Positions 3,125-55,892 are shown, numbered from the stretch's first letter. The stretch is DNA of 64,000 nucleotides from Candidatus Sulfomarinibacteraceae bacterium (GCA_963714895.1 CAVQQC010000020.1:21985-85984); one strand, 5' to 3'. Made by a program: numbers and translations. The notes: generated by a model from the sequence alone, not told the origin.

Positions 3125-3212
3125 GGAGGTGCCACTTTTGACATTGTTGGATTCCCGGATCTTCACGAAGTGAGGGATTTCTCGGGCCACACAATGTCAA
3201 GGGTGGCTCCTC
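3125..3212 (+). repeat. Family-A hairpin element, copy 1 (REP-like or structured RNA candidate)
   Basis: GGAGGTGCCAC-TTTTGACATTGT ... ACAATGTCAAGG-GTGGCTCCTC. About 20-bp stem with a 43-nt loop. The same architecture recurs at 19766, 24997, 25120, 27518, 28078 and 55804 (reverse orientation). Confidence 0.8.
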
Positions 3213-3392
3213 TCGGGAATGCCGTTCAGAAACGGCCCGGGTGCGGAGGAGGTGCCATTTGAGCCTTGTGCAAGATCATCGACACTGCCGTTCTTCGGTG
3301 GTGCTTCAGGAAGGCGGGGCAGGCCCCGCCACTACAGGGAAGTGCCCTTTGCGGGTAGGGGCGGCACCTGTGCCGCCCGGTCTCAATCAGTT

Positions 3393-3420
3393 TCTGAAGG
3401 TGGGCCAGGGCCTACCGTAC
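3393..3420. repeat. REP-like palindrome, family C (TCTGAAGGTGGGCCAGGGCCTACC)
   Basis: Near-identical to tctgaaggtgggccaaggcccaccctac at 11247-11274. Confidence 0.7.
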
Positions 3421-3489
3421 GCCGTGCCGACGGCGATAAGCCACGTTCGGGTGCTCACGCCGTGTTGGACGTGCCACCATTCTTTTTCT

Positions 3490-3545
3490 GTCCGCCGGCC
3501 GTTGGCCGGCGGACAAAAAGAGGTCCCGGCCGTGAGGCCGGGACC
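3490..3545 (-). terminator. Putative intrinsic terminator of the TonB-dependent receptor gene (double hairpin)
   Basis: Two hairpins: ggtcccggcc-gtga-ggccgggacc (3522-3545) and gtccgccggcc-gtt-ggccggcggac (3490-3514). On the minus strand the first hairpin lies 9 nt after the stop codon and is followed by TCTTTTT. Confidence 0.6.
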
Positions 3546-3553
3546 GAAAGTGA

Positions 3554-6509
3554 TCAGAAACGAACGCCGAGCGAGAACCGGAAGGTCCTCGGCGTCTGGT
3601 AGGAATTCTCGGACGTCGGCTCGCCGAAGCTGGAGCCGAAGTCCCAGTTGGTGCCCTGCACCGGGGTCTCGGTGAAGGGGTTGAAGGTATAGCTGCCGTT
3701 GGTGTCGAACACGTTGATCGTGGTGTTGCCGCCGTCCTGGCCCTGCTGGTTGAAGGCGTTGGTCAGGTCGAACTGGGCGAACAACTGCACGCCGGCGCCG
3801 ACGGTGAACCCGTAGTTGAGGGCGAAGTCGGTGCTCGAGATGTTGTCCCAGTGCTGCGAACCGGGTTCGGAGAAATAGTAGGTCGCGGTCGAGGGCGGGG
3901 TGATATAGCCCGGGTTGGTGACGTACGGCCTCACATCGACCGAACCGGTCCACGAGTAGTTGTTGCCGGTGTAGTAGTTGAACAACACCGATGCCGACAG
4001 GCTGTTGCGCTTGGTCGAAATGGCGTCCCACACCACCCAGGTGCGGAACTGGTTGCGCAGATCACTGGCGGTGTAGCCGTCGGGGTAGTTCCACGAAGCC
4101 TCGCCGTACTCGGGGTAGACCAGGGCGCCGCCGGTCACCGGACCGGAGGCCGAGGTCTCGCCGTCGAAGTTGCCCTTGGCGGTCGAGTAGGTCCAGCTGG
4201 CGCCGATGTCCCACCGGTCGCCGATGCGGTACTGGACGTTGGTGTGGAGACCGTTGTAGGTGCGGTTGTAGATGTTGCCGGTGTCGTTGGTGACGTACAT
4301 CTGGTCGATCTCACCGATGAAACCGGTGTCGACCGTGCGCCCCACCTCGGAGTTCTGGATGTAGAAGGACTTGGCATCGCGATAGACGTAGTCTACCCGG
4401 ACGACGCCGCGGTTACCCAGGCGCTTTGTGAACCCGAGAGACCACTCATCGGTGTAAGGCGAGGCCAAAGTACCGGGCGGAATCACCGGGGTGAAGCCGG
4501 GGAAGGAACCACCCGAGAAGCCGGGCAGCGTGTTGACACCACCATTGGCTTCGAACCAGTCGTTCCAGATCTGGATGGCGTCGTCCTGGCTCACCAGGTT
4601 CGAGTAGTCACCGGTGGAGTAAGCCTCGCAGTTGACGCAGGGACCTGTGTAATAAAGGAGGGTCCAGGCCGGCGATCCGGCGTCGGAAGCGTCGTTGGCG
4701 ACGCCCTGGGCCAGGGCCGCGGTGTACTGCGAGTAGGAGGCGTTGATGACGAAGTCGCCGTCGGCCTTGATGTCCCAGGCGACGCCGAGCCGCGGGGTCA
4801 GGCGCGAGTCGTTGGAGACCAAGGTGTTCGAGCCGTCGACGCCCTTGTTCCTGTCGTAACGGAGACCGACGTTGAACGACCAGTTGTTGTTGAGGCGCCA
4901 GGTGTCGTTGGCGTAGAGCGACTCGGTCGTGAAGTCGGAAGAGTTGGGAGGCCCGAAGATGGGGGTCCACCGGTAATAGGTCTGACGGTTGTTGACAGAT
5001 CGATCCGGCGCGAACACCGGGTAGATCGAGTTGTCAGGGAGGATGATGGCGGTGGAACCGTAGATGCGGAAGTCGGACCCCTGCTGGTGGTTGTCCTGGA
5101 TGCGGTAGTCGTGGAACTCGTCGTAACCGACCACCAGGTCGTGGGTGCCGAGCATTCTCACTGGTTAAGAAGTACGAGCCCTTGAGGTACCAGTTCTCGT
5201 TGTTGCGCTCCTCCTCGAGGCACTCGGGCGCCGAGCAGAAGGTCGGCGTGTGGTAGCGCGCGAACCGCGCGAGCGATCGAGCAGCAGGGTGCCGCCGATG
5301 ATGTCGGTGTAGGGCGAGCCCGAACCGACGCCGATCTGGTAGTTGCGCTCGGAGTAGAGACCTTCGAGGAAGAAGTTCTCGGTGATCACACCGGTGTAGT
5401 TGACCGACCACATGTCCTGCGGGTCCGAGCGGGCCGGGTTGAGGCTCGCCAGGTCGAGGATGGTGCCGAAGTCGGTGTTGTTCGAAGCCGACTCGATCTC
5501 GGCGTAGGAACCGACCACGCGGTGGTCCTTGGTGATCGACCAGGTGAGCTTGCCCTCGTAGCGCTGGTTGTCGTTGCCGTAGGTGTAGGGAATCAGGGTG
5601 TAGTCGGTGGTCCGCGACTCGGAGAACGAGGTGTCGCGGGCGGCCAGGAAGAACCACAGCGCGTCCTTGAGGATGTAACCACCGAAGGTGGCCTCGTAGA
5701 TGGTGCTGATGTCATCGACCGCATCGGGAGAGAGCTCGGTGCGCGAGACCCACTTGTCGTTCGACAGGTTGGCGCGGAACGAACCCGAGAACTGGTTGCC
5801 GCCGCTCTTGGTCAGCATGTTGATGACGCCGCCCTGGAAGCGGCCGTACTCGGCCGACACACCCGAGGTCGAGGTCGTGGTCTCGAGGACCGCGTCCTCG
5901 ATGTAGAGGTCGAGCGCCTGGCCGCGGATGTTCTCGTTGACCACGACGCCGTTGATCAGCCACAGGTTCTCGTACGACTGGGCGCCCGAGATGGTGATGC
6001 CGTTGATGCCGGCGCTGTTGACGCCGGGGACCAGCAGCGAGGCCGATTCGATGGTGCGGGTGATCGGCCAGTTTCTCCTGGAAGTCGAGGGGCACGGTGG
6101 TCTGGGCGACGATGTTCTGCGAGATGGTCTCGCCGGCGCCCACGACCTCGATCTCGCCCTCGAAGCTCTCATCCACCATCATCACGTCGAGGCGCTTGAC
6201 CTGCTGGTTGGAGACCTTGACGCCCTCGGCGGTCTGGGTCTTGAAGCCCTCGAGGCTGAAGGTCACGGTGTAGTCACCGGGAGCCAGGAACGGCGAGATG
6301 AAGTCACCGTTGGTCTGCGAGATGACGACCTTGTCGCCCTGCGACGCCGGTGAGCTGATCTGGATGGTCACACCCGGCAGGCCCTCGCCGTTGTACATGA
6401 TGGTGCCGCTGATGGACCCGGTCTGGCTGGTCTGCGCGGCGGCGGGAATCGCCGCCACGGCCACAGCCACGGCCAGCAACAAAATCAAATTACGTCGATT
6501 CATACCCAA
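3554..6509 (-). pseudogene. TonB-dependent receptor with N-terminal carboxypeptidase-regulatory-like domain (reading frame broken at least 3 times)
   Basis: The N-terminus (5712-6509 frame) has a signal peptide plus GSISGTIMYNGEGLPGVTIQ…GDYTVTFSLEGF (CarboxypepD_reg). The plug and barrel continue in the 5165-6172 frame, briefly in the 5034-5657 frame, then in the 3554-5161 frame. The protein ends in …FRFSLGVRF, an aromatic C-terminus typical of OM barrels. Shifts lie near 6070, 5280 and 5165. Confidence 0.85.
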
Positions 6510-6968
6510 TTCTCCTTACAAAAAATTTTGAACGAAAACGAAGAATGTCTTCCTCGCACGGATCCTCCTCCCTCCTGCGTCACCCTCCTTTCATCGTTCG
6601 AACAGCGGCAGCCGGACCCGATCTTCGGCTTCCTCCAACCGAATCCGGGTCGACGCCGCCCGTGGTTGCAACGTGGTGTTCTGGTGGTCGTTCGTCTTCA
6701 AGGAAAAAATCTCCTGCAATTTCCGTGCCCTGGGAGACACATCAACCCGGGATTGTCTTGATATTGAGACACCGAACCCAAAACCATCTCCGGGATCGAC
6801 TTTCCCTTTGAAAACAACAACTTCGGTGTGGAGCCGGTTCAGATCGCCGACGGGGTCACCTCGGGGGTGTCCCGTGGTGGAGGCAATCCACCATCCGGAA
6901 CATCCGAAATTTCGGACCCTCCGCCGGGAGGATGTCCGGTCTTCCGGACACGACGTGGTATCTCCGGA

Positions 6969-55092: not shown

Positions 55093-55093
55093 T

Positions 55094-55127
55094 GAATTCG
55101 GAATTCGGAATTCGGAATTCGGAATTT
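55094..55127. repeat. Tandem heptamer array (GAATTCG)x4.5
   Basis: Starts 2 nt after the asnS stop. Confidence 0.9.
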
Positions 55128-55183
55128 CCACCCTCCAATTCCCGGGTATCGAAACCCGGGTAACGGGCGGCGAGGGGTCCACG

Positions 55184-55711
55184 ATGTATCTGGATCCGAA
55201 AGTCCGGTTGGCGTATGTGGTGACGAAGGTGGCGGTGTTCGGGGTTGCCGCGCTCGCCACGTGGCCGTTGTCGCGGATGATCGGATCGAAGGCGTGGATC
55301 GGTCTCGCTGTATTCGGTGCGATCCTGGCGGTGATGACGGCGTTCTTCCTCCTGAGTTCCTCCCGCGACCCTGAAGCCGGCGCCGAGGAGGAGGAGTCGC
55401 CCCTCGATGACGCGGTTGACCCCGAGCAACCGTTCGTGATGCCGGTCGAGGACAGCATCGACCTCCACCCGTTTCCGCCGCGCGACGTGCCCGACGTGGT
55501 CGACGCCTACCTTGAATCGGCCTCCGAAAAGGGATTCCGTGAGGTCCGGGTGATCCACGGCCGGGGCATCGGCGTGCAGCGCGACCGGGTGCAGAAGCTG
55601 CTCGCCCGACACCCGCTGGTTTCGGGTTTCCACGACGCCCCGCCCGACCGCGGCGGTTGGGGCGCGACCGTGGTGTATCTCAAGCCGGGCAAAGAAACGT
55701 TAGAACGTTAG
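55184..55711 (+). CDS. Membrane-anchored Smr domain protein
   Basis: Two N-terminal TM helices, then …[49 protein letters not shown]… (Smr/MutS2 C-terminal-type domain). Confidence 0.75.
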
Positions 55712-55727
55712 AACGTTGGAACGTTGT
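55696..55727. repeat. Tandem octamer array (AACGTTAG/AACGTTGG)x4
   Basis: aacgttagaacgttagaacgttggaacgttgt spans the Smr gene stop codon. Confidence 0.85.
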
Positions 55728-55803
55728 AGACCTCAACCGCATGCTGGCTCCGGGAGACGACATCCCGACGTGATGATCCCGGTTCTCCGAGAAGGCTTTG
55801 CCC

Positions 55804-55892
55804 GTGAGTGCCCCCTCAGACAATGATTGGGCCCGTAACGTTACCTCGCAACCGGCGTGCGAGTTCCCAACATTGTCTGAGACGGCACGTCC
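55804..55892 (-). repeat. Family-A hairpin element, copy 7 (reverse orientation, variant of copy 4)
   Basis: GTGAGTGCCCCCTCAGACAATGATTGGG … CCCAACATTGTCTGAGACGGCACGTCC. Its flanks are identical to the reverse complement of copy 4. The stem carries paired substitutions. Confidence 0.8.

Follow-up and report, generated by a model that had tools for sequence, protein, structure and literature searches.

Intergenic hairpin repeats with a covarying two-box stem in marine-sediment Acidobacteria

Introduction

A 64,000-nucleotide (nt) stretch of DNA from a Candidatus (Ca.) Sulfomarinibacteraceae bacterium (GCA_963714895.1, CAVQQC010000020.1:21985-85984; hereafter the window) contains seven copies of a hairpin of ~88 nt whose two arms change together. 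Is this element, which we call family A, a structured RNA, or is it a mobile-type DNA repeat? An initial annotation of the window had left the choice between a structured RNA and a family resembling REP or MITE repeats.

The DNA repeat has precedents. In REPINs, conserved ends enclose a variable spacer, compensatory changes are common and tandem clusters occur, and they are thought to spread as single-stranded DNA (ssDNA) hairpins by means of RAYT transposases (PMC3116915). A distinct group of tyrosine transposases that lie between long inverted repeats (TIRYTs) is found in Acidobacteria, and some of these repeats make up families (PMC3733652). Full-text literature searches returned no paper describing repeats in Ca. 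Sulfomarinibacteraceae or Thermoanaerobaculia, the sequence of the element itself not having been queried. Here, we describe family A in the window and in related genomes, and weigh what its structure, strand preference and distribution say about its nature.

Results

Direct reading of the window confirmed all seven hairpins, c1 to c7, which fall into subtypes A1 (c1, c2, c3, c5 and c6) and A2 (c4 and c7). The strict pattern GTGCCAY-N6-CATTGT-N30-60-ACAATG-N5-GGTGGC matches the five A1 copies, whereas 100 shuffles gave an expectation of 0.00 matches, so that the copies are far beyond chance. A covariance model run over the whole window with filters off returned exactly c1 to c7 as strong hits, at 40.8–82.6 bits, along with a second palindrome (family D, 28794–28905) and weak fragments, including a 3′-arm remnant at 28033. 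Every copy folds as a long hairpin, with energies of −45 to −53 kcal/mol and z-scores of −3.0 to −6.7. The positions given by the initial annotation stand for the most part; c3, placed there at 24997–25084, is shifted by ~10 nt and lies at ~25007–25094.

A scan of one genome per prokaryotic species with the strict pattern yielded at least 113 matching stretches, all of them in metagenome-assembled genomes (MAGs) of Acidobacteriota labelled Ca. Sulfomarinibacteraceae, Ca. Sulfomarinibacter, Thermoanaerobaculia/-ales or Holophagae, with at least 19 assemblies represented among the matches listed. In these 113 loci and the window (907 kb), a hidden Markov model search found 174 non-overlapping copies, with which the covariance model agrees, and ~25 more were found in 80 metagenome loci picked through the hutH protein, independently of the element. 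About 190 copies were assembled in total, and a viral contig collection contained none. In its coding DNA, the window is 78–82% identical to one of these MAGs (L032); it is also 87–90% identical to marine-sediment metagenome contigs, which places it in this group of Acidobacteriota; a search for contigs encoding two window proteins that adjoin copies returned no record. Family A is a large intergenic palindromic repeat family spread over marine-sediment Acidobacteria.

The unit is a hairpin of ~90 nt, and the core common to all classes reads GGTGCCAY-N6-CATTGT...loop...ACAATG-N5-GGTGGC. In its basal stem, the boxes GGTGCCA/TGGC(A/T)CC and CATTGT/ACAATG are nearly invariant, the 6-bp spacer between them varies in sequence but keeps its pairing, and the apical loop changes rapidly. 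Around the hairpin lie linker modules and class-specific flanks, and the flanks distinguish at least six classes (I, A2, II, III, IV and V) that share one core. Class I, the main type in the window with ~79 copies overall, has GCGGCGGAG before the core and TCCTC-CGGGAAGCGCG behind it, followed by a linker with a GAAAC/GATAC motif; accordingly, the A1 copies read GCGGCGGAG(C)-GTGCCAY-N6-CATTGT ... ACAATG-N5-GGTGGC-(T/A)(C/A)CTC-CGGGAAG, and the A2 copies read CACCGGAC-GTGCCGTCTCA...GGGGGCACTCACGGGCAA. Class II (~43 copies) forms palindromes of ~165–190 nt in which outer flanks of two types (GTGTCGTCGAAGC...GCGCGTCTCATTGG and CTCGCCGAAGCGAGAAGCGCTC) enclose a core symmetric enough for the pattern to match on both strands, and class III reads TCGAACGGG / core / TCCCTCGGCCACC.GCGATG.GAGAATC. 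The loops had been thought unrelated between copies, which is not the case in class I, where the motifs ttcacgtcggca and CGGGC are conserved in part. Classes I, III and IV have in common a stem haplotype with a T·T mismatch (TCTTTTG/CTAAAG), each combining it with class-specific loops. Units can be chained head to tail, as in an array of 4.9 units with a period of 121 nt and 92% matches (L073), and truncated units and solo arms occur beside full ones. Several other hairpin families with unrelated interiors, among them family D, end in the same GGTGCCA...TGGCACC termini.

The paired inner-stem substitutions initially reported for the window copies are correct, and compensatory variation holds across the whole collection. 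Among 131 pattern-selected copies, double changes occur at 10 of the 20 stem pairs; one spacer position, for example, is occupied by C-G in 45 copies, G-C in 26, A-U in 17 and U-A in 11. The 49 copies without a pattern match served as a set unbiased by the selection pattern. In this set, standard pairs fill 95.5% of the cells, compared to 80.5% with partners shuffled, and none of 500 shuffles attained the observed pairing values; sliding the partners by 1–3 columns lowered pairing to 37–54%. Double changes are found at 14 of its 18 pairs (137 cells), and the boxes are nearly invariant here as well. Together with the diversity of the spacers (62 haplotypes in 143 copies), this covariation indicates a hairpin under constraint, the boxes in their sequence and the spacer in its pairing only. 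Conserved pairing with divergent sequence does not imply a selected RNA structure, since REPINs, which are DNA repeats propagated as hairpins, show the same pattern (PMC3116915).

The two strands differ in how well they fold. On the element strand, the non-Watson–Crick cells comprise ~97 G·U(T) as against ~13 A·C combinations, such as a Y opposite the invariant G residues of GGGTGGC, or TATTGT opposite ACAATG. Under RNA parameters, 180 of 191 copies have the more stable fold on the element strand, with means of −48.0 kcal/mol for this strand and −41.8 kcal/mol for its complement (Wilcoxon p = 7e-30). By gene context, the element strand is the better-folding one in 33/35 (++), 22/26 (−−), 36/40 (+−) and 22/22 (−+) cases. 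DNA parameters gave the same direction of asymmetry with smaller margins. Because the polarity of the asymmetric classes was set by their flanks, the result is not circular for these, although it is partly so for the near-symmetric class II. One-strand wobbles and the better fold argue for a constraint on one folded strand, either RNA or ssDNA, rather than on duplex DNA.

A functional structured RNA is one candidate explanation. It could be a processed small RNA (sRNA) or a module of a 3′- or 5′-untranslated region, produced by read-through or from a promoter of its own, whose stem serves as a site of protein binding or of processing, for instance by an RNase III-like enzyme. The strong stem covariation, the conserved wobbles, which on the other strand would be A·C mismatches, the advantage of ~6 kcal/mol for the forward RNA and the conservation of the boxes over a family-level clade are all consistent with this explanation. 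Tandem sRNA gene arrays are known in other bacteria, and in two of 18 loci scanned (L046 and L071), the element lies within ~20–120 nt of Acido-Lenti-1, an Rfam motif filed as an sRNA.

The behavior of the element at orthologous loci is less easily reconciled with an RNA gene, as its presence, class and orientation differ between close relatives. We compared the convergent spacer between hutH (histidine ammonia-lyase) and a TSCPD-domain gene among lineages whose HutH is 90–95% identical to that of the window. This spacer contains no family A unit in L121 and L125, a class II unit in one orientation (+) in L119, L120, L123, L143 and L183, a class I unit in the opposite orientation (−) in L115, and an A2 plus a class I unit in the window. 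Upstream of hutH, a gap of 3 nt in L116 takes the place of the 376-nt repeat cluster in which c5 lies in the window, and c6 and c5, which are ~470 nt apart in the window, compare with two adjacent units in L114. L095 has a unit and a linker where L060 has neither, and L027 and L019 carry their units at different places; at one site in L019, the outer frame GCGGCGGAGGTGCC...TGGCTCCTCACGGGAAG is kept around a different short hairpin. Copy number at a single site varies from one unit in L001 and L061 to two in L098, and two pairs of orthologous sites (L083/L066 and L035/L009) are occupied by different classes. Other copies have been kept in place, namely c6 with L114/L154, the L107 copy with that in L025, and the L033 copy with that in L052. 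An extra 1.2 kb in L025 relative to L107 is a glycosyltransferase gene and not an insertion sequence.

Nor do the surroundings of the element favor an RNA. Between genes running in the same direction, it is sense in 35 and antisense in 27 cases, which is not a significant difference; 23 copies lie in divergent spacers, and c5 and c6 are antisense to the surrounding operon. The neighboring genes share no functional theme, being unrelated housekeeping genes. None of the seven window hairpins is followed by a T run, and reading of the class I consensus revealed no promoter-like AT-rich motif, although no dedicated promoter or terminator scan was run. At the gathering threshold, Acido-Lenti-1 was the sole Rfam 15 match in the whole window and nothing matched the element in 18 related loci, while a permissive Rfam search of 24900–28300, a region with four copies, gave only chance-level microRNA and small nucleolar RNA matches (E ≥ 0.19); the element therefore matches no known Rfam family. 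As to a use of the loops as guides or spacers, they show no convincing complementarity elsewhere in the window. The only loop match above shuffled controls is a 15-nt identity, ACGTCGGCAAGATCT, between the c5 loop (27559–27573, +) and the coding strand of the HlyD-like gene (18851–18865, −), which is probably due to chance, as it is in the same sense rather than complementary and does not extend. With no bias in orientation, no promoter or terminator features, no associated gene and no positional conservation, the evidence speaks against a cis-regulator as well as a conventional sRNA gene, and we consider a functional RNA unlikely.

According to the gene calls at the loci, which came from a heuristic GC3-based caller and are approximate, 129 copies lie clearly between two called genes and 29 at locus edges. 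A further 17 overlap longest-open-reading-frame (ORF) calls at the 5′ extreme only, which puts them ahead of the likely true starts. Intergenic placement holds for effectively all copies, as initially claimed for the window, where it is true of all seven; family-wide, too, copies are not inside genes. Convergent spacers (44) outnumber divergent ones (23). Stop codons frequently adjoin class II units on either side, 14–40 nt being a common distance from core to stop, and in L055 an rRNA operon (16S, two tRNAs, 23S and 5S; 1–4866) is followed, directly after the 5S gene, by three family A units (5022–5567) antisense to the operon.

This placement raises the possibility of DNA sites maintained by the host and spread by recombination. 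Such sites might serve a nucleoid-associated protein, gyrase or another architectural factor as binding or cruciform sites, a role proposed for E. coli BIMEs, or might act at gene ends as bidirectional transcription barriers that do without a U tract. The high stability of the hairpins in either orientation and the copies retained at orthologous gene ends would fit. However, a double-stranded site is not expected to keep G·T wobbles on one strand only, corresponding gene ends in related lineages have no element, many copies are remote from stop codons, and truncated and nested copies look like products of decay rather than of maintenance. As the primary explanation, host sites appear quite improbable to us; such a role could be a secondary effect.

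In the window, where coordinates run from outer stem to outer stem, c1 (class I; 3125–3212, +; GGAGGTGCCAC-TTTTGA-CATTGT...ACAATG-TCAAG-GGTGGCTCCTC; −52.9 kcal/mol, z −6.67; 79.2 bits) lies between the gene of an AcrB-type pump, ending at 2939, and a TonB-receptor-like gene (3554–5161, −). It is followed at 3213–3275 (+; repeat families D9/D10) by a linker (TCGGGAATGCCGTTCAGAAACGGCCCGGGTGCGGAGGAG) and a second copy reduced to its 5′ arm (GGTGCCATTTGAGCC...); this truncated arm, at ~3242–3275, gives a weak covariance-model hit at 3242–3312. Between the divergent HlyD-like (18576–19706, −) and epimerase (19956–21026, +) genes lies c2 (class I; 19766–19851, +; −50.9 kcal/mol; 77.6 bits), whose 3′ tail (TCGTGGTGAAGCGTTCAGAAAGACGGCGCACCAC; 19852–19885, +) aligns with the other linkers. 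The class I hairpin c3 (+; GGAGCGTGCCAC...GGTGGCAACTC; 74.3 bits), which follows the TSCPD-domain gene with its terminator-like hairpin in the convergent spacer shared with hutH, is joined by a conserved linker (TCGGGAAGCGCGTGCGGAAACGTGCCGCGTCCA; 25095–25127, +; families D9 and D10) to c4 (A2; ~25128–25221, +; CCGGACGTGCCGTCTCAAACGACGTTGGG...CCCAATCATCGTTTGAGGGGGCACTCACGG; −50.3 kcal/mol; 40.8 bits).

Another linker (CTCCGGGAAGAGCCTACGGATACGACCCGCGTGCGGCG; 27480–27517, +; family D10) precedes c5 (class I; 27518–27605, +; 73.9 bits), which is antisense to the minus-strand genes on either side and has a linker-like tail downstream (CGGGAAGCGCGTCGGGAGACGCGGGTGCTCTCGAA; 27606–27640, +; family D4). 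A 3′-arm remnant (GTGGCTTCTCC) and a linker (CGGGAAGCGCATGCGGAAACGTACCGCGTGCGGCG; family D9, 81% to the linker at 25085) occupy 28033–28077 (+) upstream of c6 (class I; 28078–28163, +; −48.3 kcal/mol; 82.6 bits), itself 68 nt from the stop of a rubrerythrin-like gene (28235–28636, −). The last copy, c7 (A2; ~55802–55894, −; −52.8 kcal/mol; 50.0 bits), is flanked by the convergent Smr-domain gene (55184–55711, +) and a gene at 56002–56319 (−). An acyl-CoA-binding-protein gene is also among the neighbors. The conserved linker noted initially is present at three sites (25095–25127, 27480–27517 and 28039–28077), and diverged versions follow c1, c2, c5 and c6.

An ORF remnant at 27690–27870 (−) is 89% identical to a gene end in L116 (928–1065), where it stands directly before the acyl-CoA-binding-protein gene; in the window, the 376-nt repeat cluster separates the two. 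The remnant may derive from a small toxin/antitoxin-like gene. Family D is represented at 28797–28893 by a near-perfect palindrome of ~97 nt (27.5 and 25.6 bits on the two strands) whose interior is unrelated to family A and whose termini are the same (GGGGTGCCAGGTCAGACGATTCCGACGATCTT...AAGATCGTCGGAATCGTCTGACCTGGCACCC and GGGGTGCCA...TGGCACCCC). A partial copy lies at 27655–27680, 7–8 copies occur in the sampled loci, and no direct repeat flanks the palindrome.

Family A sits in mosaics with heptamer repeats (e.g. AATTCGG), GTAG-tagged REPIN-like doublets, a GGGTGGG-type hairpin module and Acido-Lenti-1. The last is found in the window at 63928–63973 (−) and in five copies in 4 of the 18 loci scanned (L046 119–164, L071 5989–6034, L110 1316–1361, and L011 1393–1438 and 1565–1610). 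Its distance to a family A unit is 17 nt in L046 and ~115 nt in L071, and hundreds of bases to kilobases in L110 and L011. Acido-Lenti-1 may be a module of the intergenic repeat mosaic instead of a stand-alone sRNA gene.

The true GTAG-type doublets of the window belong to families other than family A. A REPIN-like inverted doublet with GTAG/CTAC tags at 11244–11331 (GAAGGTGGGCCAAGGCCCACCCTAC ... GTAGGGTGGGCCTTGGCCCACC; partial copy at 3397–3425) is 88.9% identical to L111 7350–7438, and a second GTAG-tagged palindromic doublet (GGCGGGGCAGGCCCCGCCACTAC ... GTAGGGGCGGCACCTGTGCCGCCC; 3313–3378) is part of the same repeat cluster as c1. The GTAG/CTAC doublet is a classical RAYT-type signature and suggests that a RAYT is present somewhere in this genome. 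Tandem arrays of the heptamers AATTCGG, ATTTCGG and GTTTTGA and their complements occupy ~20 sites in the window, many of them at gene ends (e.g. 2937–2972, 14586–14621, 14721–14769, 17033–17068, 18412–18447, 24894–24936, 27395–27430, 51198–51233 and 55095–55130). They often flank terminator-like hairpins and family A units, and related loci have similar arrays of other heptamers, such as GATACTC and GAGCATC in L121. A repeated hairpin module, CCCCTCTGAAATTCTCGCCGGGCGCAGGCCGTCGGGAATTTCAGAGGGTGGGTGGG, lies between c5 and c6 (27844–27962) and recurs downstream of hutH in three relatives (L114 3545–3658, L116 3013–3126 and L117 5093–5207).

Discussion

Of the initial choice between a structured RNA and a REP- or MITE-like family, the hairpin itself stands, also by the criteria of the initial annotation, and its context, with no gene link, no orientation bias, mosaic surroundings and turnover, favors the REP- or MITE-like side. 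The REPINs of Pseudomonas fluorescens SBW25 (PMC3116915) resemble family A in forming long hairpins (~70–100 nt) from a pair of conserved inverted ends, with a middle that is less conserved and often shows compensatory changes, and in their extragenic, multi-copy, lineage-persistent distribution with some ordered tandem clusters; the variable, compensated middle and the extragenic, clustered placement were tested and are present in family A. In contrast to REPs, family A has arms (GGTGCCAY-N6-CATTGT) without self-complementarity and a stem with no GTAG/CTAC next to it. In contrast to REPINs, family A units are chained head to tail through a conserved linker, and several classes combine unrelated flanks with one core.

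GTAG- and CGTC-tagged REPs and TIRtrons/TIRYTs, which include an Acidobacteria-specific TIRYT group (Di Nocera et al. 2013, PMC3733652), are likewise intergenic palindromes favoring unidirectional and convergent gene pairs, but tagged REPs measure 20–40 bp, with 8–9-bp stems and 4–5-nt loops (PMC3733652), compared to ~90 nt for family A cores. Like CGTC REPs, class II often shows a YGTC near a small stem-loop, yet within 14 nt in only 19 and 25 of 42 flanks, and its flank stems lack the starting A-T pairs described for CGTC REPs. E. coli BIMEs share with family A the organization in mosaic clusters, with palindromic units joined by conserved linkers in intergenic positions, often at operon ends. 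In BIMEs, the REPs alternate in orientation and are ~35 bp long, whereas family A units are ~90 nt long and follow one another as direct repeats every 121 nt. ERIC/IRU and Correia (NEMIS) elements, imperfect palindromes or MITEs of 100–155 bp, are similar in size, hairpin folding, intergenic location and occurrence in either orientation. Correia elements are near-identical to one another and bear defined terminal inverted repeats with a TA target duplication; family A, in contrast, has very diverse stems and shows no target duplication. Of the features that define a MITE, the conserved inverted termini GGTGCCA...TGGCACC are present; a target-site duplication, named in the initial annotation as an indication of MITE-like mobility, was not found flanking units in presence/absence comparisons. 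With non-REP arms, no GTAG tag, an inconsistent CGTC-like tag, no target duplication and no transposase in 1.32 Mb, family A falls outside the strict definitions of the known families. It appears to work like a REPIN or a MITE and is at most a putative member of those families.

We favor, at somewhat better than even odds, the interpretation that family A is a superfamily of non-autonomous palindromic repeats of the REPIN/BIME/MITE kind, propagated through a strand-specific hairpin that a putative enzyme reads. For a unit to be copied, moved or lost, one particular strand, most likely as ssDNA, would have to fold into a hairpin; the putative enzyme would recognize the two boxes on the folded strand, so that the invariant boxes would represent its contacts. 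Copies that lose pairing would stop propagating, which would leave the compensatory pattern and the tolerance of G·T wobbles on one strand, and tandem arrays would grow by unequal recombination. Effects on the host, such as protection of transcript 3′ ends or insulation between convergent genes, are plausible by-products. Selection at the level of propagation would explain covariation without a link to gene function, one-strand wobbles independent of transcription direction, the boxes, the decay products and the turnover. The repeat nature of family A, its structure, covariation, strand asymmetry, intergenic mosaic setting and turnover are direct observations, and from these we infer mobility, the enzyme and the ssDNA intermediate.

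Several observations weigh against this interpretation. No clean empty site or target-site duplication was found in the comparisons of L027 with L019, of L095 with L060, and of the window with L114, L116 and L117, where boundaries are fuzzy, mosaic and non-alignable. RNA energy parameters give a larger strand asymmetry than DNA parameters do. The copies have diverged instead of being near-identical, and a whole bacterial family retains the core, both of which would also fit a function for the host; the intergenic placement depends on approximate gene calls. Finally, the 1.32 Mb of sampled loci contain no transposase or recombinase gene beside or between copies. In the same loci, a scan for HUH/Y motifs found no ORF, tblastn with E. 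coli RayT gave no match, and no TIRYT gene was seen. All-versus-all clustering of 672 neighboring ORFs returned only generic families (ABC-F, HD-GYP, TonB receptors and GGDEF-EAL) and no recurrent partner, Pfam identified only housekeeping genes between inverted element pairs, and a solo-arm search of ~1.3 Mb for an autonomous element with the same ends gave only fragments beside full copies.

Because at least six classes have the two-box stem in common, other hairpin families carry the same GGTGCCA...TGGCACC termini and the stem is retained on one strand throughout a bacterial family, it might be the recognition module of a new trans-acting system, either a hairpin-specific ssDNA transposase or recombinase unrelated to RAYTs, or an RNA-processing activity that makes small RNAs with variable loops from hundreds of dispersed and tandem units; this we regard as a long shot. 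The remaining candidate identities can be dismissed briefly: the 3′ arms run into CTC(N)CGGGAAG or CACGGGCAA and never a T run in the seven window copies and the class I consensus (Rho-independent terminator); the boxes differ from R''/R' (RYYYAAC...GTTRRRY) and the units are adjacent or dispersed among housekeeping genes rather than associated with cassette ORFs and an integrase, the only likeness being the layout of two boxes, spacer and variable loop (integron attC site); spacing and −12 element misfit TGGCAC-N5-TTGC in the arm (sigma-54 promoter); the linker motif differs from the CUGAUGA/GAAA core and Rfam is silent (hammerhead-like ribozyme); and the sequences misfit dif/Xer sites.

Dispersed intergenic palindromic repeats are a well-known kind of element; what is unusual in family A is the clear layout of two boxes, paired spacer and variable loop, together with its modular organization in multiple classes. 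Thermoanaerobaculia and Ca. Sulfomarinibacteraceae are abundant uncultured bacteria of marine sediments, and family A, with the GTAG-type, heptamer and Acido-Lenti-1 repeats, fills much of the intergenic DNA of this group. Since these repeats alter intergenic content between close relatives, they will affect how these MAGs are assembled and binned, how operons are predicted in them and how "sRNA" candidates are annotated. Family A also shows clearly why RNA function cannot be read from covariation in a repeated hairpin alone. Should an enzyme that reads the two-box stem be found and prove not to be a RAYT, it would add a new hairpin-directed system of DNA or RNA processing.

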